Below, piece after piece: positions 8,633 to 18,860 of a stretch of 18,860 bases of DNA. The number at the start of each line of letters is the position of its first letter. Within the stretch, counting starts at the first letter, position 1. Origin of the DNA: a virus (lineage: Duplodnaviria > Heunggongvirae > Uroviricota > Caudoviricetes); IMG/VR virus record IMGVR_UViG_2526164632_000035. One strand, 5' to 3'. The notes beneath the pieces are model-generated. The model was not told the origin of the DNA. It saw only the letters and a program-made list of their open reading frames with translations, and ran no database searches. The translations under genes were made by a program, and so were the position numbers.

Positions 8633-9077
8633 ATCTCACACCTCCGGAAATCCCCGCTGAAGCCATCATTAATGCGACATCATCCTCGCTGACATCCGCC
8701 ACATCCGCAGACGATAAAATCTCACGCCCTCCGTCCCCACCAAACCGGACGCCTCCGGCAAGTCCTGCCGCTTTCTGCATCAGCATTTTTTCCTCATCCG
8801 GCATCTCCGTCTGCGCTTCCTCACGCCGGGGGGCAAGCAGACTGAAATCAGAGGGATGCATATCCGGATCGCAAAAAAACAGGCTGAGTACGGCGTACGT
8901 CAGCCCGGAAAAATGCATATCCAGTTGGGTATCGAGAAAATAATGCGTACGGTAAAAATGTCGCCAGTCGGCATATTCGGTGGATGTCATCCCGGCAAGC
9001 ATGGCGCGCCAGTCAGGCCTCCCCATCTCACGCGCCAGTCTGAGGGCAAAATTCAGCTCGCCGTCGAAGACTTTCCC
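8613..9077 (-). CDS. T: T-frame segment of the tail assembly chaperone GT, reached by programmed -1 frameshift from G
   Basis: The -1 frame is open from the slippery site to the stop at 8613..8615 and encodes …GKVFDGELNFALRLAREMGRPDWRAMLAGMTSTEYADW…, matching lambda gpT as recalled. Confidence 0.8.
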   Translation of the reverse strand, partial: GKVFDGELNFALRLAREMGRPDWRAMLAGMTSTEYADWRHFYRTHYFLDTQLDMHFSGLTYAVLSLFFCDPDMHPSDFSLLAPRREEAQTEMPDEEKMLMQKAAGLAGGVRFGGDGGREILSSADVADVSEDDVALMMASAGISGGVRYVPAGW

Positions 9078-9484
9078 GCAGAAAAATCATCATCAGTCAG
9101 CGCGTTATTTTTCGCCACTTCGGTGCTGTCAGTATCCGCATGAACAGCCCCGCTCATCCCGGACAGACGCAACACCACATCTTCCGCCCGGGCAATGGCA
9201 TCCGCAGGCCAGGTGGTGAGCACCTCCTGTTCGATCTGCATCACAGCCTCATTCATTGACGGTGATGCCGTTTTCTGCGGATGGTTATGCCACAGGGACA
9301 TCGCCACCAGAAACGCGCCGGTTCTGACGAGATCTTCCACGCTTACCTGCAGGTTGCCGCTGGATTCTGCCTGTTCTGCACGCCGTTTCAGGAGGGCAAG
9401 ATGCTCAATACGCTGCAGCGCAGACAATTCGGAAAGCGTGACGGACACACCGTTATATTCAAATTGTTCTGTTTTCAGAAACAT
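9053..9484 (-). CDS. G: Tail assembly chaperone (lambda gpG-like)
   Basis: Start chosen at the internal ATG (MFLKTEQFEYNGVSVTLSELSALQRIEHLAL…) with GGAGG 9 nt upstream. The track ORF's 24-aa N-terminal extension overlaps V and is rejected. Confidence 0.85.
   Translation of the reverse strand: MFLKTEQFEYNGVSVTLSELSALQRIEHLALLKRRAEQAESSGNLQVSVEDLVRTGAFLVAMSLWHNHPQKTASPSMNEAVMQIEQEVLTTWPADAIARAEDVVLRLSGMSGAVHADTDSTEVAKNNALTDDDFSAGKSSTAS
9071..9077 (-). promoter_or_regulatory. Programmed -1 ribosomal frameshift slippery heptamer G GGA AAG (G to GT)
   Basis: Minus-strand gcGGGAAAGtc lies 6 codons before the G stop. This is the same heptamer used at the lambda G-T frameshift site. Confidence 0.8.
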
Positions 9485-9497
9485 GTATGACCTCCGT

Positions 9498-10250
9498 TTA
9501 CCCTGCAGCGCCCGCTTCAGTAACGGTGACTTCAGCCACTGCGGCGAACTGACCATTTCCGCTCACCACAGGGATCTGCACCTTACCTGTCGCCACGCCG
9601 TTTACCGTAATTGTCATATCTTTCACACTAATGGTGGCTTTCGACGGATCGGCGGAAACCGCTCTGAACGTCTTGTCTGTTGCACTTTCCGGCTCAAAAG
9701 AAACCGTCAGGGTGGTTGTTTTCCCTTTTGCCACCGTACCGGATGTCGGCGTCACCTTAATCGCACTGACCGGCGTAATTTTGCTGCGTTCTTCCGCTAC
9801 AGAAGGTTTACCCACGTTAGTGACTTTCACCGTGCGGGTGATCACTTCTTTCGCCGTCACGGCCTTACCGATACTGCTGACCCAGCCACGAAACACATCC
9901 ACCGTGCCATTCGGGAAACGGATTTTATAGGCCCGGACATCGCCGCTTTCAAACCAGCCTATAAGCCCTTTCTGACCTTCTTCTCCCGGTTTCCAGGCCA
10001 GCGTAAAACTGGTATCTCCTGCAGACTTCTGCCCCTGCCCGGTCGCGGTCCAGTCCGCGTCTTCATCATCCAGGTAGTTATCATCGTAGGGTTCTGCCGT
10101 CATCTCGCCCGGCGTCAGATCCTTCACCTTAGCCAGTCGCAGCCAGTCATCGTCTGACAACGGGTTTGCATAGGCGTCACCCTGACCGTTATAAACCCAC
10201 AGGGTGGTACCGGCACCTTTTACCGGCTCAAGGGGATTTGGTGTTGACAT
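9498..10250 (-). CDS. V: Major tail tube protein (lambda gpV-like, with C-terminal Ig-like domain)
   Basis: 250 aa with similarity throughout ([79 protein letters not shown]). Confidence 0.9.
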
Positions 10251-10257
10251 ATCGTCC

Positions 10258-10653
10258 TCACATCTCGTATGTAATGGAATAAGTCAGATCCGCAGAACTC
10301 CATAACGCCATATCGTCATCACGACGATACTCATAGCCCTGCGTAACCATCGTGGTAATCAGGTCTGCCAGTGCCGGGATCGCAGTCATCGCCGGATAAA
10401 TCCGGCTTTCCATCCACGAATCCAGCTCCGAATCCGGTACCTGTGCTGGTAAAAACACCTCAATATGCAGTGTGGCCCGCCAGGTATCTGCATCCAGCTC
10501 TTCACCGGTATACTCTGCATCCGTCAGATAAACCGCGACCGCGGGAAAATCCTCTTCGTCAAAAACAACGGGGCGACCATCAAACAGCGTCGCCCCGTGT
10601 TCATGCAGCTCCAGTGCATCCAGCACTGCAGCACGGATATCAGTATGTTTCAT
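10258..10653 (-). CDS. U: Tail terminator protein (lambda gpU-like)
   Basis: 131 aa, [15 protein letters not shown]…[18 protein letters not shown]…[25 protein letters not shown]…YRRDDD…[13 protein letters not shown]. Start overlaps the Z stop. Confidence 0.9.
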
Positions 10654-11183
10654 CGTTTTATCGCAATCCTCAGTTGTTGTTTCAGCGCGTATGCCAGTTC
10701 TCCGGGCAGACGTTCACGCCGGATACGGTCAACATTCTCATCAAACGCCTGTTTCAGTGGGGCCGCCATCGGGATTTTCACCACATCAATGGGGTAACGG
10801 TTTTTCCCGACCACACGCTGCATGACATGCCAGCGACCATTTTTTAATCGCTGAATAAATGCCCGCTGATAACGATGCTGACCGGCTTTGAGTATGCTGT
10901 CCGGACGACGCCCCGGCATCCTGATCCCCAGCTTAATCACCGGGAGATCACCGCGGTTAACGATAATTCTGGCATTCGGATTTCTGACCGTGGCCCGTTT
11001 CAGTCTGGACCGTTCCTTAACCAGTTTCCGTCTCACCCTGGTTTCCCGGGCAACCTGTGATGAAGACTGATTAATCGCCGTTGTGGCCACGCGGTTAATG
11101 GTCATTGCAGAAGCCGCCGGAATGGCGTTTTTACGAACCCGGCTCAGATTATCAATCGCCTGCTCAAGCCCTTTTATCGCCAT
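10650..11183 (-). CDS. Z: Tail completion protein (lambda gpZ-like)
   Basis: 177 aa, MAIKGLEQA..NLSR…INRVA..AI.QS.SQVARET.VRRKLVKER.RLKRATV.NP.ARI.VNRGDLPVIKLG…AFIQ.LKNGRWHVMQRV.GKNRYPIDVVKIPMA.PL…RIRRERLP.EL.YAL. The central region appears shorter than I recall for lambda gpZ; not resolved. Confidence 0.8.
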   Translation of the reverse strand: MAIKGLEQAIDNLSRVRKNAIPAASAMTINRVATTAINQSSSQVARETRVRRKLVKERSRLKRATVRNPNARIIVNRGDLPVIKLGIRMPGRRPDSILKAGQHRYQRAFIQRLKNGRWHVMQRVVGKNRYPIDVVKIPMAAPLKQAFDENVDRIRRERLPGELAYALKQQLRIAIKR

Positions 11184-11198
11184 AATTTCACCCTGCGT

Positions 11199-11552
11199 TT
11201 ATCGTCGCCGGTTAACGGCGGGTGGTTGCCCACGGTTGAGCCAGAGATAACAGCTGCCCCCGTCATCCGGAGAAACACGATCCACCCAGAATATCTCACC
11301 ATTAATGGTCAGCGTGTCACCACGCCGCACAGCACGAACCGTATCCGTCCGCACAAATAATGACGGGCTGCTTCCTTCAATACGGACCCCGCTACCGGCA
11401 AATCCCAGCGACTCCGGATCGTCAAAAACCCCCTGAACTTCTCCGCCACACTGTGCCCCCGAGGTGAACTGTGCACAGAGCCCCATCACTTCAACAATCG
11501 TACTGTCCACCCCGGCAAGGGCAGCATCAAAGGCATTCTGAAAATCACGCAT
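11199..11552 (-). CDS. FII: Head-tail joining protein (lambda gpFII-like)
   Basis: Start chosen at the ATG giving MRDFQNAFDAALAGVDSTI…, which aligns with the lambda FII N-terminus. C-terminus FWVDRVSPDDGGSCYLWLNRGQPPAVNRRR. Start overlaps the FI stop (ATGCGTGA). Confidence 0.8.
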   Translation of the reverse strand: MRDFQNAFDAALAGVDSTIVEVMGLCAQFTSGAQCGGEVQGVFDDPESLGFAGSGVRIEGSSPSLFVRTDTVRAVRRGDTLTINGEIFWVDRVSPDDGGSCYLWLNRGQPPAVNRRR

Positions 11553-11919
11553 AAACAGCCATTCCGCCATCAACGTGTGTTTTTGCATCTGAGGACATAA
11601 TCAGAATCACCCGACCAACATCCGCAATCTCAACGGATTCCCCTGTTTCACCATCAATGCTACAGAGATGGAGGCAGGTCAGAACTCTGATGCGCGTTAA
11701 CGCACCGGATGTATCCTCACGAACATCATGAGCCGCGGTTTCCCGCTCCCGGATCACCGTATCCCCAACCTGAACATCCTCGCCGGATGACTGTATTTCC
11801 TCTTCCCATTCCGCCACCCGCTGCGCTATCTCTGCGGCACTCCCGGATATATCCGGCTCACGCCCCAGAATCAGGGCCAGTTCATCAAGCCGTTTCAGAT
11901 TTTGCTCTTTCGTTGCCAT
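11545..11919 (-). CDS. FI: DNA packaging protein (lambda gpFI-like)
   Basis: Start chosen at the internal ATG (MATKEQNLKRLDELALILGRE…AEIAQRVAEWEEEI…). Acidic mid-region. Position between E and FII. Confidence 0.7.
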   Translation of the reverse strand: MATKEQNLKRLDELALILGREPDISGSAAEIAQRVAEWEEEIQSSGEDVQVGDTVIRERETAAHDVREDTSGALTRIRVLTCLHLCSIDGETGESVEIADVGRVILIMSSDAKTHVDGGMAVYA

Positions 11920-11970
11920 ATCAGCCCCCTGTGAAAAAAGACACGGGGGCATTTCGCCCCCGCTCACGGA

Positions 11971-12998
11971 TTATTTCACCTGTACCACCACAAACTCATC
12001 CGGGTCCGGCAACACCATCAGCGGCGCAGACTGCGTCATGGTAAATTCACGGGCGGGATCCCCCACCGTCAGCCAGTGTTTCGGATAACGGGAAGAGGCC
12101 ACCACACCTTCGGACAACGCCTGCGCATCCTGAATGGCACCGTAACAACGGATCCCATCTGCAGCAGTATTCCCCAGAACCAGCATGCCCTCCGGCAGAT
12201 AACGTTTTTCGATACCGTCTTCTGCTATATAAGACGTTTTCGCCACCACAATGGCCAGATCGCCGTAATACCCCTTGAAGGACACCACTGCGCCCAGATC
12301 TTTCACTGCCGTTTCGAGTTGAGAATTTGAACCGCGACGGGTATCCAGTTTTTCGCGGAACAGCTTAAAACCATTCAGAAGACGCCAGACGGTACCGTCC
12401 ATAATGGCAATATTCACAAGACCGCTGGCCTGGTCGCAGTAGAGGTCAAGATCATGTGTAGGATCGAACGTGTCACGATCCTGTTTTGACCACTCCTTAC
12501 CACTACCCTGAGTGATGTTATTCTTCGTCGACCTGCCAAAATCGACCTCAATTTTCTCGAACTGGTCTCCTTCCATCGTGTATTTGCCATACAGCACGGC
12601 ATTCACCGCCTGCATTTCTTCCACCTGGACAATGGCGTGCTCTTCCTGTTTGAGGTTATCAGTGATGATACGCAGACGACGGTAGGCCGGGTCGTTCAGC
12701 TGAGCCGGATCTTCACCGGGAAGACGCTCAACCGCCTGCTGGTAATTAAATTCGTGTTTCGGCTTGACGTAGCCCGGACGTAACACGCGGGTTTCACCAC
12801 CACGATGACGCAGCACTTTTCCTTCAACAACCGGGGAGACATAGGCCGCCACCGGCGTTTTCCAGTAATTTTGTCCAGCATCACCTCTTCGGTATGGAAA
12901 TTCACCGTACGGCGGAAAAACAGCTCCAGAAACAGCGCACGAAATTTCACTTTTTGTTCGGTATAACCGAGTAACTGGCGGGTCGTAAACAATCCCAT
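11971..12998 (-). pseudogene. E: Major capsid protein (lambda gpE-like), split by a frameshift at the homopolymer 12858..12861
   Basis: N-terminal frame from ATG 12998 (MGLFTTRQLLGYTEQKVKFRALFLELFFRRTVNFHTEEVMLDKITG) and C-terminal frame (…VAAYVSPVVEGKVLRHRGGE…PGYVKPKHE…VQVEEMQAV…KLDTRRGSNSQLETAVKDLG…GDPAREFTMTQSAPLMVLPDPDEFVVVQVK) both match consecutive parts of lambda gpE but sit in different frames. The junction is at minus-strand ggAAAAcg. Confidence 0.8.
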
Positions 12999-13055
12999 AA
13001 ATCAGTTCCTTTCATTCAGAAATCAGTCAGGCCACCGCGGTGGCCTGATAACGTG

Positions 13056-13403
13056 TTACGGCAGCGCCGCGTGACTCAGGGCACTGCCGGCAAAGGCATT
13101 TGCCTTTTTGTGTTCATCCACACTTTCAGGCCAGCGGATTGCCTCCGTCGCAAAGGTCCCCGACTTGTAATAGGTCAGTACCGTCTCTGTGCCTTCAAGC
13201 GGCAGTACCAGTATGCCAACTGCACTACCGGCTTTCTGTCCGTCCCAGACCACCAGTTTCCCGCTGGCTTCATCCAGCATCAGGGGCGTCAGTGCCGGTG
13301 TTGCCGAGGAAATCCCGCTGCTGCCTGTGGCGGTATGAGCCGGATCATTACCGGCAAAAATACGTACTTCCGCACGCTGTTCAGTGATGGTTTTCGTTAC
13401 CAT
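13056..13403 (-). CDS. D: Head decoration protein (lambda gpD-like)
   Basis: Start at ATG 13403 (MVTKTITEQ…) with AGGAGG 8 nt upstream. NDPAHTATG…TPLMLD…KLV.WDG…AVGIL…TYYKSGTF…WPE…AFAG. Confidence 0.85.
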   Translation of the reverse strand: MVTKTITEQRAEVRIFAGNDPAHTATGSSGISSATPALTPLMLDEASGKLVVWDGQKAGSAVGILVLPLEGTETVLTYYKSGTFATEAIRWPESVDEHKKANAFAGSALSHAALP

Positions 13404-13438
13404 ATTGTAAAACCTCCTGTTGATGATCAGCACTGACT

Positions 13439-14945
13439 TCATGGCATGGCCATGAGCATTTTCACGTCCGCATCACCGTCTGCTGACGTCTGTGGCACGC
13501 CACCCTGTACCGCTGCCGGTGAATGGTTCGCCATGATGCGTTCAAACAGGGCGGTTGTGGATGCAGAGACCGGTTCTGCCTTACCTGATCCCGCAGCCAG
13601 CACAGCCCGGGCGCTCTCCACAGTCATTCCCGGGCAGGCAGCCAGCTGTTCAGCCTGCGCCTCAGCCCCTTTTGCCTCATCCAGTGCCATGATCTGATCA
13701 CGGAGTGAGGGTCCGGCATCCGCCTGCGGTGAAGCAGCCAGGATCGGGCGGGCTTTTTCCACCGTCATCTCCGGCATCGCCGCCAGCGTTGCCGCCAGTT
13801 GTTCACGACCGTTCGCTTCTTCACACGCCATAATGCGATCGGCTTCACTCTGCGTGGATGCCACCGGCTGCTGCGGTGCCGCCGCGGCCAGAATCGCCCG
13901 GGCCTGTTCAACGCTCATGCCCTGTTGTCCTGCCAGCATCGTGGCAAGCTGTTCACGTCCTTTCGCTTCCTGGCATGTCAGGATCCCCATCACTCGCTGG
14001 TTCTCCTGCGCGGCGGCTTCCGTTGCAGTTAATTGCGGCATAGTGCCTCCTCTGACATTACTGTTCAGCGCCGTGGCCATCACACTGATGGCATCCGACG
14101 CATTGACTAATTCATCCGCCAGCCCGGCATCAATGCCGGACTGACCTTCAAAAACGGCGGCCTCTGTTCCCGTGACGGCATCAACAGACAGACCGGTAAA
14201 CATGGCCACTTTTTCGGCAAACATCCGGCGCGCCGCATCAATGCGCTGCTGCATGTCCTGGCGAACCTCTGCCGGTAAGGCTTCAAACTGATTGCCATCC
14301 ACCTTGTGCGCCCCTGAGTAAATCAGCGTGATATCCACACCGGCCTGCGCCAGATGACCGGCATAGCTGACATGGCTCATCATCACGCCAATGGAGCCGA
14401 TACGGGATGTCTGGGTAACCAGCCGTCGGGAGCAGGCCGATGCCAGCAGCATGGCTGCAGAACAGGCCGTGTCATTGCACAGTGCCCAGACCGGCTTCTG
14501 CTGACGGAGGCGGTAAATCATGTCAGCGCAGTCAAACGCGCCGGCGGCCTGCCCGCCCGGACTGTCAATGTCCAGCAGTACGCCCCGCACCTGGCTATCC
14601 GCCATTGCCTGCTGAAGACAGGCGACAATGCCGTCATAGCCAGTCATTCCGGAAAATGGCCGCATCCCCCCCAGCCGGTGCACCAGCGTGCCGGTCACCG
14701 GCAGTACCGCAATACCGTTCACCACCCGGTAAACACGGGCCGGTCGTTTACCTCCGGCCATGTACTCGTCCGTTTCAGCCAGCATTCCGGGAGCATCAAG
14801 CTGTACCTGCTGCTTGTGGTACCGAAAGACTTGCTGCCCCCATCTCGCGCCCGAGCGCGCAAAAGAAAACCCGCGCATAGGCGGGCTCCAGAAGCAGCGG
14901 TTCATTGAATGCTGCGGCAATAATGTGTGAAAGATTACGTCTCAC
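13439..14945 (-). pseudogene. C: Head maturation protease and scaffold (lambda gpC/Nu3-like), with a frameshift near 14796..14825
   Basis: The true N-terminus is in another frame: GTG at 14943..14945 with AGGAGA 9 nt upstream gives VRRNLSHIIAAAFNEPLLLEPAYARVFFCALGREMGAASLSVPQAAGTA*, matching the lambda gpC N-terminus, with a stop at 14796..14798. The rest (…GKRPARVYRVVNGIAVLPVTGTLV…GMTGYDGI…LLDIDSPGG…KPVWALCND…LVTQTSRIGSIGVMM…) is in the track ORF frame 13439..14920. Confidence 0.75.
13537..13996 (-). repeat. Three tandem, diverged copies of an approximately 150-bp unit encoding an approximately 50-aa motif in the Nu3/scaffold part of C
   Basis: Protein copies: RVMGILTCQEAKGREQLATMLAGQQGMSVEQARAILAAA…; RIMACEEANGREQLAATLAAMPEMTVEKARPILAAS…; QIMALDEAKGAEAQAEQLAACPGMTVESARAVLAAG…; followed by a partial RIMANH…. 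Lambda as recalled has one copy. Confidence 0.7.
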
Positions 14946-16528
14946 GTGGTGTTGTCTCCTCTTCCGGCCTGCGACTCTCCGCTATCTGCTGCTGATACGC
15001 CTGCGCTATCCACACCGGACGTGAGAGTCCGGCTTTTTCCCGCTCTGCAGATTCCCTGACCTGCTGGCGGAAAATGTCCTGATAATCCTCGCCCATCAGC
15101 GCCAGCTCTTTCTCATACGTGCTCAGTCCGGCCTCAATGCGCATCACTGATTCCTGAACCTCCTTGAGCCCGTCAATGGCCATTCTTCCGGCTCCAATCC
15201 ACTCAGCCCGTGACCAGGCTGATCGCGCCTGATAAAAATCAAAACGTGCCCGTGGCGGACGAATAATCCCCCGAAGAAGTGCCTCTTCCAGCCAGCAGGA
15301 AAACATCTGCGTGGCCAGCCGGGACGCAATAAATTTTCGCCGCCCCATAAAATAGCGCCACGACTCATTGGCGGATGCGCGGGCACTTGAATAACTGACC
15401 TTCGAGTAATCACGGGACAACTGTTCGTAGGAAACGCCAAGACCGGCGGCGATATACCGCAGCAGCGCCTGTTCAAGCGCCGAAAATCCATTGTCTGAAT
15501 CCTGCGCGGTCTGAAGTTTCAGATCATCACCGGGGAAAAGGTGCGGAATTTTGACACCGCCCAGCGTCACGCTATTCGTGTCATACCAGGTGGAGAACTT
15601 ATCCAGAATATTAATAAGCGGATTATCCTTCTGCCCCTGCGGCGCACCGGCGATATATTCAAAGGCCTTTTCGGTATCAAGGTCACTTTCAATCGTCGCT
15701 GCATACATCGCCTTCACTATGGCCGACTGAAGCTGTGTTGCCTGCAGGGAATCGAGCATCTTCAGCCGTTCCATTACGCTGTAAAACTGATTGGCCCCAC
15801 GGGTCTGCCCGTCCTCCACCGGCTCGAAAATATGCAGCATGGCCGGACGCCCGGTGGGAAGTTCACGCGGGATCCGTTCCCATCGTCCACTCCCAGAGAA
15901 CGGAAAATCATCCTCACAGATATGGTACGCAACGGCACGACCATATCGATCGACCTCCACACCGGCCCGCAGAAAACGGTTCCCCATACCGTGTCCTGGC
16001 GTGTCCACCCGTTTCGGACTCACGGCTTTAAAACGCGTACGAAACAGTTGCGTGCTCTCCGTATCCCAGACCGGCTGCACAAAGATTTTCGCCGTTAAAC
16101 GCATGAACGCCCACACCTTCACGAATAAATTCCGTAAACGTGCGTTTCTCTTCCACGTCGATCTCGCCAGACATCCCTTCGGCGTATTCCGACCAGGCCG
16201 CCTCCACCTCATCGACAAAACTTTTTGCCGCAGTCTCCCGCATCCCCAGCCAGCGCCAGTTCGGACGGTAGCTGATCAGAAACATATGCCCGACAATATG
16301 ATCCTTATGCAGGGCCACCGCATTGGCCGCTATCCCGTTATTGCGCACCAGATCATCTGCCCGGGCATTCCCCAGACGCAACGCAGGCAGCAGGGCTGCA
16401 TCGGCACTCTGCGCCGGTGGCAACCACTCCGCCATTTGCCCGCCAAATCCTGCACCGCCACCGTTGTAGCTGAGGCTCTCCCGAAGCGGAACGCCGTTCA
16501 CATCAATCAGGACAGGCGTTCGTTTCAT
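14935..16528 (-). pseudogene. B: Portal protein (lambda gpB-like), split by a frameshift at the homopolymer 16086..16089
   Basis: N-terminal frame from ATG 16528 (MKRTPVLIDVNGVPL…GGGAGFGGQ…NARADDLVRNNGIAANAVALHKDHIVG…HAFNGEN) stops at 16028. C-terminal frame (…IFVQPVWDTESTQLFRTRFKAVSPKR…FEPVEDGQTRGAN.FYSVME…QSAIVKAMYAATIES…GLGVSYEQLSR…) runs to the stop at 14935. Both match lambda gpB. The junction is at minus-strand gAAAAtc. Confidence 0.8.
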
Positions 16529-16731
16529 AACCTCACTCCCAGCGGACGACGGCGACGTCGGGTTGTCCCCAGTACCGACTCCGCATCATTGATCGCCCGG
16601 TTAAGCTCATCCAGAGAAGCCGCCGTATATTCAATTCTGCGACCATCTTTCTGGACAGACACCACCCGTTTACCGGTTAATAAATCAAGGCGCGCCTGAC
16701 GCAGCGCCTGCAGTTCAGCGACTGTAACCAT
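16525..16731 (-). CDS. W: Head-tail connector protein (lambda gpW-like)
   Basis: 68 aa, same length as lambda gpW (…LTGKRVVSVQKDGRRIEYTAASLDEL…RRRR). Stop overlaps the B start (ATGA). Start overlaps the A 3' end. Confidence 0.85.
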   Translation of the reverse strand: MVTVAELQALRQARLDLLTGKRVVSVQKDGRRIEYTAASLDELNRAINDAESVLGTTRRRRRPLGVRL

Positions 16732-18643
16732 TCACTCCTCCGGACAGCTTCGCTGCCAGTTCTTTCAGGGTTGGCCGGGTCGTCTCTTCTTCCCGGGATT
16801 TTGCCAGTACAGCCAGATCAAGCTGCCAGCGTTGCACGGACACACGTAATGCCGCGTAGGCATACACCAGGCAGTCCAGCGCTTCGTTACGCCGCTTTTT
16901 GTTATCCCACAGCAGACGCATCTTTCCTTTTTCCCACTTCTCCACCAGCTCTTCCGCCACCAGTTGCTGCGCCTCTGTCTGCGAAAAAATCTCCGGATCA
17001 TCAGGAAAACGGATGGCATACGACGTGGCTTCATCCGCAGGCGTGGGATCGGCTTTCATACGGGCATAGAGAATTTCTTTTGCGGTGTCCGTCCCCACTT
17101 CGCACAGATACACGCCCCGCTGATTGCGGGTTTTTGGCATGGTGATCACCGGCTTGCCATAAACAGATGCACCTTTTACCGGCAGCACCCGGAAAACACC
17201 GTGTTTTTTTGACCTCTGATAGACAATTTCGCCATCGATCCCCCCGGTGTCCCAGCAGACACGGGAAATGGTCATTTCGGTTCCGTCTGCATGGCGGTAT
17301 TTTTTGTTGATCGCCACATCCACACGTAACAGCGTCTCTTCCTCATCGGGACGCCCCATAATGATGATTTTATCCACCAGAAAGGCTTCCTCTCCCGGAG
17401 CCCATCCCCAGACATACATCTCAAAACGGTTTCGCTGCGAGTCAATGCCCGCCGTCAGATAAACCACCCGGGAAGGCACCGCAGCCGTGTAACGCACAAC
17501 CTTATCCATCAGCACCTGGTGATCGAGTTTTTCGCCCACGGCCTCTTCCCAGGTCTCGCCCAGCGTGGTGTTCACAAAGGTTTTCAGGCCGTTGGGATCT
17601 TTCAGTGCATCCAGCCAGTCATAGACAATCTGTACCCAGGTGGTGAACGGACTGTACGCCGTCCAGATATGAAATGTGATGGAGCGCGGCGGCGGAATTT
17701 CATTATCCGCGGCGCTGAAAAACGTCAGACCGTCGCGGGTCCACATGCCCGTGTTTTCGCAGATCCACCGCCCGTTGCTCTGGTCAAGCTCAGACTGATG
17801 GATCACGCAGCCATGATGTTCACAGAGGTAGAAAACGCTTTCGGGGCTGTCCTTCTCCCATTTAAGGCCAAAAGGCGTGGACTCATCGCCAAATTTCAGA
17901 TACTGCGCCTCCCCACAGTGCGGGCAGGACACATAAAAACGCATGAAATGCGCCGACTCGTTGGCCGCTTTTTCGATCTGGCAGGAGCCTTTTATTTTAG
18001 GCGTCGAGCCGCGAATGGATTTTGGCCATACCGAGCCCTCAATACGCTTATCCCCCAGCAGGGTTGGCGAGCCCTCTTTTTCGACATCCGGCTCGAACGA
18101 GGAAAGTTCGTCATAGCAGACCACGTCCACGGATTTTTCACGGTAGTTTTTTGCTGCCGCACCACCCAGGCACCAGAAGCCCACCCCCGATGAAAAGCGT
18201 TTCAGCGTGAGAGTATTGTCACGATGTTTACGACCCAGCCACGGGGAAAGATCTTTCAGGCATGGCACGTCCCGAATCGTCGCCTCCACGTGAGACTTCA
18301 TAAAATCTTCAGCGGCAGAATCCGTGGGCTGAAAAAGCAGACTGTTTCGGGATTTATGCTCAATAAAATACCCGGCGACTCCCAGCAACATCTTTGTATA
18401 GCCAACACGGGCAGATTTAATCAGATTAACAGTGCGGATCTGATCATTCCCCATACTGTTCATGATGGCGATCTGGAACGGCAGCGTTTTCCATTCGCCG
18501 TCACCGTATGAGGATTCTTTCGGCAGATAATAATACTGGTCAGCCCATTCAACTGCCGTCATCGGTACAACCCTGACCAGAGGCTGCAGCGCAACCGAAA
18601 CGGCGGCCACCATATTATTCAGTTGTTGCTCTGATATATTCAT
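16715..18643 (-). CDS. A: Terminase large subunit (lambda gpA-like)
   Basis: Start chosen at the internal ATG 18641..18643 (MNISEQQLNN…), aligning with lambda MNIS…; about 643 codons. Similarity throughout (TAVEWAD.YYYLPKES, KSARVGY.KMLLGV, KRFSSGVGFWCLGGAAAKNYREKSVDV, GDKRIEGSVWPKSIRGSTPK, HFMRFYVSCPHCGE.QYLKFGD, FHIWTAYSPFTTWVQIV, LTAGIDSQ, CWDTGGID, KGASVYGKPV, WDNKKRRNEALDC). Confidence 0.92.
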   Translation of the reverse strand: MNISEQQLNNMVAAVSVALQPLVRVVPMTAVEWADQYYYLPKESSYGDGEWKTLPFQIAIMNSMGNDQIRTVNLIKSARVGYTKMLLGVAGYFIEHKSRNSLLFQPTDSAAEDFMKSHVEATIRDVPCLKDLSPWLGRKHRDNTLTLKRFSSGVGFWCLGGAAAKNYREKSVDVVCYDELSSFEPDVEKEGSPTLLGDKRIEGSVWPKSIRGSTPKIKGSCQIEKAANESAHFMRFYVSCPHCGEAQYLKFGDESTPFGLKWEKDSPESVFYLCEHHGCVIHQSELDQSNGRWICENTGMWTRDGLTFFSAADNEIPPPRSITFHIWTAYSPFTTWVQIVYDWLDALKDPNGLKTFVNTTLGETWEEAVGEKLDHQVLMDKVVRYTAAVPSRVVYLTAGIDSQRNRFEMYVWGWAPGEEAFLVDKIIIMGRPDEEETLLRVDVAINKKYRHADGTEMTISRVCWDTGGIDGEIVYQRSKKHGVFRVLPVKGASVYGKPVITMPKTRNQRGVYLCEVGTDTAKEILYARMKADPTPADEATSYAIRFPDDPEIFSQTEAQQLVAEELVEKWEKGKMRLLWDNKKRRNEALDCLVYAYAALRVSVQRWQLDLAVLAKSREEETTRPTLKELAAKLSGGVNGYSR

Positions 18644-18860
18644 CGAGTAAATCCGGTAATTTATCCCCTGCCCGCGCACACTGATTTGCCCCCTTCGCAA
18701 TAAGGGTTTTCAGATGGTCAAGATGGCGCGGTGTTAAATCAGGAAACTGTCGCTGCATGGATAAAGGGATGGAATCAAGCGTACTGGATAACGCCATTGC
18801 CAGCTTACTGAGGGCAAAAATACAGAACCCGGTGTCAATAAGTTTTCCTTTGACTACCTC
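18615..18860 (-). CDS. nu1: Terminase small subunit (lambda Nu1-like), 3' part only; the gene continues beyond the right edge
   Basis: The minus-strand frame is open from the window edge (…EVVKGKLIDTGFCIFALSKLAMALSSTLDSIPLSMQRQFPDLTPRHLDHLKTLIAKGANQCARAGDKLPDLLDEYIRATTE*) and matches the lambda Nu1 C-terminal third. Its 3' end overlaps the A start by 29 nt. Confidence 0.8.
   Translation of the reverse strand, partial: EVVKGKLIDTGFCIFALSKLAMALSSTLDSIPLSMQRQFPDLTPRHLDHLKTLIAKGANQCARAGDKLPDLLDEYIRATTE

Follow-up and report, generated by a model that had tools for sequence, protein, structure and literature searches.

The DNA analysed here (the window, 18,860 nt) is the terminal part of draft contig AIHC01000061.1 from Escherichia coli DEC12C (assembly GCA_000250255.2), which it matches at 100 %. 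Position 18860 is the physical end of this 75,063-bp contig, which breaks just upstream of the terminase A gene, near the Nu1 gene. Its open reading frames and the annotation of relatives identify the window as the late-gene arm of a lambdoid prophage, situated on the minus strand, with an insertion sequence and an effector gene remnant at its left end:

about 16715-18640, minus strand: terminase A
16525-16731, minus strand: W
14935-16528, minus strand: portal gene B
about 13439-14945, minus strand: protease/scaffold gene C
13056-13403, minus strand: head-decoration gene D
11971-12998, minus strand: major capsid gene E
beyond E, minus strand: tail genes FI, FII, Z, U, V, G, T, H, M, L, K and a truncated I
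1234-3938, plus strand: IS679 (IS66 family; tnpA, tnpB and transposase), in place of gene J and the tail-fibre genes
1-732 and 823-981 (ORFs), minus strand: remnant of the type III effector gene nleB2, adjoining the IS
12800-18860, minus strand: head-gene patchwork (5′ end of E, D, C, B, W and terminase A), delimited by comparison with the copies in strain 12A (see below)

Within the tail genes, the motif GGGAAAG (9071-9077, minus strand) lies near the 3′ end of the tail chaperone gene G, at the G/T overlap, and is recognised by comparison as a genuine lambda-type slippery heptamer, predicted to direct the programmed -1 G/T frameshift. At the opposite end, the last 10 nt of the contig hold a 4-nt scramble (18852-18855), with TTT-GACTACC in the window and TTTTGAC-ACC in all relatives; this scramble, at 18851-18855, contains an offsetting pair of indels and was kept apart from the one-base indels described below.

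IS679 is bounded by imperfect terminal inverted repeats (1232-1258 and 3913-3939), and the lesion that it causes, with loss of J and the tail fibres, is common to the window and to complete genomes such as that of E. coli O111:H2 12A (CP077479). Directly at the right end of the IS (junction at 3938), another 353 bp are absent from the window; gene I has thereby lost its 3′ end, in what resembles an IS-adjacent deletion. In 12A, nleB2 is listed as a pseudogene and contains an internal stop, and nleC, nleH and nleF come next past the point corresponding to the left edge of the window; the prophage is thus a defective one that carries effectors. IS679, the nleB2 stop and the truncated I are independent lesions of the same prophage and, because J and the tail fibres were lost at IS679, it is non-infectious whatever the state of its portal gene.

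The portal gene is split in the deposited sequence:

16028-16528, minus strand: 5′ part of portal gene B as deposited, 166 aa, GenBank EHX32464.1
14935-16085, minus strand: 3′ part of portal gene B, in another frame, native residues 148-530 plus the stop
16086-16089, minus strand: run of four A (A4) with the extra base; three A (A3) in relatives, codons GAA ATC for E147-I148

The first of these ORFs, whose record is titled 'phage portal protein, lambda family [Escherichia coli DEC12C]', starts at the portal ATG at 16528 and codes for 147 native residues (...HAFNGE), followed by 19 out-of-frame residues (NLCAAGLGYGEHATVSYAF) and a stop. The frame of the second, open over 14935-16218, reads ...IFVQPVWDT... 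on to the portal C-terminus and the usual stop at 14935. The plus strand from 16080 to 16095 is CAAAGATTTTCGCCGT, giving G-AAAA-TC on the minus strand with the A run exactly at 16086-16089 (TTTT on the plus strand). The gene strand is deposited here as GGC GAA AAT CTT TGT and reads GGC GAA ATC, with three A, in phage 21, in PhiR12_1 and in two prophages of 12A; because these relatives all read GAAATC at this point, the window carries one extra A. A preliminary description of the window had placed the junction of the two portal frames at gAAAAtc in 16086-16089, which is exact in the deposit, and had predicted that three A would restore a continuous portal of about 530 codons. Deleting one A in silico indeed produces a single 1593-nt ORF of 530 aa, and the comparison that it had proposed with portal genes of closely related prophages returned A3 in the relatives and an uninterrupted 530-aa B product in 12A.

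The repaired protein is 100 % identical to WP_000831765.1, the portal of the syntenic 12A prophage. It matches Pfam family PF05136 (Phage_portal_2) with E = 3.5e-100 over profile positions 2-354 of 354, and lambda gpB chains (structures such as PDB 8K38) with E = 1.2e-214, while the deposited 166-aa fragment reaches PF05136 positions 2-118 of 354 only. An uninterrupted ORF of about 530 codons, as expected for a PF05136 portal, is thus absent from the deposit and present once a single A is removed. The position of the gene, between W and the protease/scaffold gene C and downstream of terminase A, is also that expected for the lambda family. From these comparisons we infer that the real DEC12C gene codes for an intact 530-aa portal of the lambda/phage-21 type.

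We then looked for the A4 allele in other sequences. Among 5,426 complete E. coli genomes, searched with 801-nt and 76-nt queries, the 76-nt junction query found 2,886 places in 1,833 genomes and not one match at 100 %, the best (75/76) corresponding to the A3 form; likewise, every match among phage records was one base shorter than the query. A pattern search for A3, or A3 plus any base, over GTDB species genomes and metagenome contigs recovered 122 loci (two in species-representative genomes and 120 in metagenome contigs), with A3 in 122/122 and A4 in 0/122. At the protein level, an exact look-up found the 166-aa product on record from exactly one contig, AIHC01000061.1, and its out-of-frame tail was not shared by those members that were read of the 649-member cluster to which the truncated protein belongs. 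The lesion does not recur in the closest material either: 12A, the long-read assembly UGFE01000002 and the draft of the sister strain DEC12A all have A3 at this site. The A4 allele is therefore private to one draft contig among all the sequences searched.

The two portal frames could in principle be rejoined during expression, by a +1 ribosomal slip at CUU-U (AAU CUU UGU to AAU CUU (U) GUG) or by transcriptional slippage in the A run. The zero-frame sequence GAA AAT CTT TGT does contain CUU-U, the same slippery tetranucleotide as in prfB, and the predicted product of the slip is a 530-aa portal with ENL replacing EIF, then continuing as ...VQPVWDT.... However, the codon after CUU-U is UGU, neither a stop nor rare, and in GAA AAT CTT TGT GCA we found only 4 A, where at least 8-9 A are needed, and no stop or hungry codon next to the slip site; four A are far too few for efficient transcriptional slippage, and we know of no stimulatory element at the portal A4 site. 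Moreover, programmed frameshift sites are conserved, but the shifted arrangement was present in 0/2,886 and 0/122 of the homologous sites, all homologues being single-frame with A3. Programmed frameshifting and transcriptional slippage were rejected on these grounds (an arrangement that is not conserved, a short run and no evident stimulator), and we give recoding practically no credence as the origin of the split. It is also very improbable that A4 is real and that in DEC12C a +1 slip at CUU-U, just past the insertion, still yields traces of the complete portal; if it did, this would be a case of spontaneous, unselected frameshift suppression in a prophage structural gene.

As a reference for the rest of the window we used, base by base, the syntenic prophage in the complete genome of 12A, a strain that may not be identical to DEC12A. 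This prophage and that in UGFE01000002 have the same IS679 insertion as the window and the same flank toward zinT and yodB, and both have uninterrupted genes B, C and E, coding for 530, 501 and 342 aa. These two independent assemblies agree over 22.5 kb except for one G-run indel in the IS transposase: UGFE01000002 has G3 in the IS679 transposase gene (L010, position 16296), where 12A and DEC12C have G4, and its call is shortened to 379 aa, which is probably a long-read homopolymer error. Positions 1-12,850 of the window differ from 12A by 4 substitutions, no one-base indel and the clean 353-bp deletion flush with the IS end, whereas, the contig-end scramble apart, positions 12,857-18,860 show about 100 substitutions relative to the syntenic copy, together with four one-base indels.

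One of these four indels is the extra A in the portal gene. The other three lie in the same head module and did not figure in the preliminary description of the portal site:

12857-12860, minus strand: one-base deletion in capsid gene E, a 5-base run reduced to 4; private SNP at 12864
13408-13411, minus strand: one-base deletion in the spacer before D, a 5-base run reduced to 4; non-coding, between the GGAGG ribosome-binding site and the D start
14813, minus strand: one extra base in protease/scaffold gene C, outside any homopolymer; the frame breaks at codon 45

The four indels, all private to the window, recur whether it is compared with the syntenic 12A copy, with the second 12A prophage (L005) or with UGFE01000002. 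They all fall within 12,857-16,089 (3.3 kb), and none occurs in the unique tail and IS sequence (12.8 kb); with uniform placement, the probability that all four would lie in the last 6 kb is about 0.01. The deletion at 12857-12860 splits E into ORFs 12696-12998 and 11971-12852, with the break after about 47 residues, and the E entry, EHX32459.1, is recorded on one contig only; this deletion is situated no more than about 60 nt from where the sequences of the two prophage copies become near-identical. That at 13408-13411 is probably another consensus error. At position 14813, the gene strand is CAC-AAC-AGC in the syntenic copy, CAC-AGC-AGC in the second copy and CAC-AAG-CAG in the window, that is, with the A and the G in tandem. 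Such tandem alleles are the signature expected of a consensus built from the reads of two collapsed paralogues. Altogether, the private differences in 11,900-18,860 are the 4 indels, 2 SNPs (12864 and 15895) and the 4-nt contig-end scramble, with a ratio of indels to substitutions of 2:1. The two SNPs, private with respect to the two 12A copies aligned, might stem from another 12A paralogue, such as the third or fourth portal copy of this genome.

A three-way alignment of window positions 11,900-18,860 with both 12A prophage copies (head modules at 2157335-2158927 and 1920396-1921988 of CP077479) revealed that the substitutions were not private in the same way. Of 238 sites that differ among the three sequences, the window has the allele of one or the other 12A copy at 228, with 7 switches between them:

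11900-13450: as in the syntenic copy, 103 distinguishing sites
13591-14462: as in the second copy, 14 distinguishing sites
14642-15324: as in the syntenic copy, 12 distinguishing sites
15340-15343: as in the second copy, 2 distinguishing sites
15373-15775: as in the syntenic copy, 16 distinguishing sites
16454-16481: as in the second copy, 4 distinguishing sites
16558: as in the syntenic copy, 1 distinguishing site
16702-18840: as in the second copy, 76 distinguishing sites

Up to about 12,800 the two 12A copies are easily told apart, differing at 95 sites in 11,900-12,802, and from there on they are 98-100 % identical. The portal indel falls in a 680-nt gap between a block like the syntenic copy and a block like the second copy. 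We also considered that the head region might derive from another, better-matching prophage, but this was rejected: the best match for 12700-16700 reached 99.6 %, in O145:H28 strains, and did not contain the indels. None of the complete genomes reproduced the mosaic of the window; part of this mosaic may be due to real gene conversion.

The draft of DEC12A (AIHA01000023.1) contains the same prophage, and its contig likewise ends inside the terminase gene. Over 21.3 kb, its alignment with 12A shows 13 one-base indels, mostly at short homopolymers; seven of the 13 are inside the portal gene, which is called as fragments of 289, 48 and 69 aa, and none is at 16086. Its substitutions correspond to alleles of the second 12A prophage, arranged as a patchwork of short blocks. 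In the two drafts of this project, the same multi-copy gene is thus broken at different positions, whereas long-read assemblies of the same lineage have it unbroken. Outside the window, toward yodB (L009, position 20579; L012, position 19692), both DEC12 drafts have T7 where 12A and UGFE01000002 have T8, a discrepancy with three possible sources: the drafts may systematically under-call the homopolymer, the long-read assemblies may over-call it, or the lineages may really differ.

The split portal could alternatively be a genuine mutation, a slipped-strand +1 event in the A run that cut the protein at 166 aa in a decaying prophage already disrupted by IS679 and that, together with the frameshifts in C and E, abolished procapsid assembly. 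Short homopolymers are natural slippage sites, and the deposit annotates the gene fragments as separate proteins. Since the prophage already carries the lesions of IS679, nleB2 and gene I (loss of J and the fibres, the internal stop in nleB2 and the additional 353-bp IS-adjacent deletion truncating I), selection on the head genes would be relaxed. Real decay, however, should not be limited to the multi-copy stretch at the contig end, sparing 12.8 kb of equally dispensable unique sequence (the probability of about 0.01 given above), nor should private indels outnumber private substitutions by 2:1. Furthermore, the frameshift was found in no relative, near-identical syntenic prophages included, and both the tandem alleles at 14813 and the fact that DEC12A has another set of indels point to an artefact of the process. 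We therefore consider genuine decay unlikely. A more modest alternative to the trace synthesis considered above, also very improbable, would be that DEC12C gained frameshifts in three head genes in the very recent past, once IS679 had inserted; if true, these would offer a snapshot of unusually fast prophage decay. Even if the portal frameshift were real it would be unremarkable, J and the tail fibres being already lost.

The preliminary description had left the choice between an inactivated portal and a homopolymer error. The comparisons favour the latter, and we estimate, with a probability of roughly 85 %, that the extra A is a sequencing or assembly consensus error in the 2012 draft of DEC12C and not a mutation of the bacterium, a conclusion drawn from assembled sequences alone. 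This reading is favoured because the allele is private, the indels are clustered, the sequence is a patchwork at a contig end and the sister draft behaves alike, and because, with one A removed, the product is 100 % identical to that of 12A. The variant is found in a single assembly and is missing from its close relatives, and it is embedded in multi-copy sequence at the end of a contig, with chimeric alleles and more indels than substitutions. The most likely course of events would start from the presence in DEC12-type O111:H2 genomes of at least two lambdoid prophages with head genes 98-100 % identical. The assembler, unable to separate these copies, would have produced one chimeric consensus from about 12,800 to the contig end with reads from both, and the one-base indels would have arisen in this consensus at short homopolymers (A3 to A4, and twice from 5 bases to 4) and at one SNP between the copies.

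Two considerations speak against a consensus error: a run of 3 to 4 bases is short for a classic homopolymer miscall, and genuine frameshifts would be tolerated in a prophage that is defective anyway. As to the sequencing itself, the announcement of the DEC drafts is, according to its citation in PMC5592225, that of Hazen et al. (2012). In a contemporaneous paper from the same institute, other E. coli strains were sequenced by 454 Titanium FLX and assembled with Celera; this combination would fit indels biased to homopolymers but, since it concerns other strains, it is only a lead.

We conclude that, with high probability, the portal frameshift is not a real biological feature. The earlier statement that no capsid can assemble adds little in any case, since E and C are also frameshifted in the deposit and J and the fibres are gone. 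More generally, drafts from around 2012 of pathogenic E. coli with multiple prophages can hold chimeric head genes and spurious frameshifts, and a 'pseudogenised' portal, protease or capsid gene in such drafts should not be taken as evidence of decay, or of the absence of particles, without confirmation at the level of reads or by long-read assemblies.

The locus can be compared with three known systems. With respect to the portal of phage 21 and lambda gpB, the window shows the canonical order A-W-B-C-D-E, DNA that in the portal region is 96.6-97.8 % identical to phage 21 and PhiR12-type phages and, once repaired, a full-length match to PF05136; it differs in that the deposited gene is split by a +1 insertion at codon 148, a split that was absent from the phages and complete genomes searched. 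With the syntenic prophage of 12A and UGFE01000002 it shares the IS679 insertion, the tail genes (4 substitutions in 12.8 kb), the flank and the repaired portal, whereas in the window B, C and E are broken, the head region alternates with that of the second copy (L005) and 353 bp are missing. Finally, while the DEC12C case differs from the collapsed-repeat and homopolymer errors of multi-prophage E. coli drafts in being known from the consensus sequence alone, it resembles them in its private one-base indels, mostly at short homopolymers, in their confinement to near-identical paralogous prophage sequence at a contig end, in its chimeric SNPs and in the occurrence of the same pattern in DEC12A.
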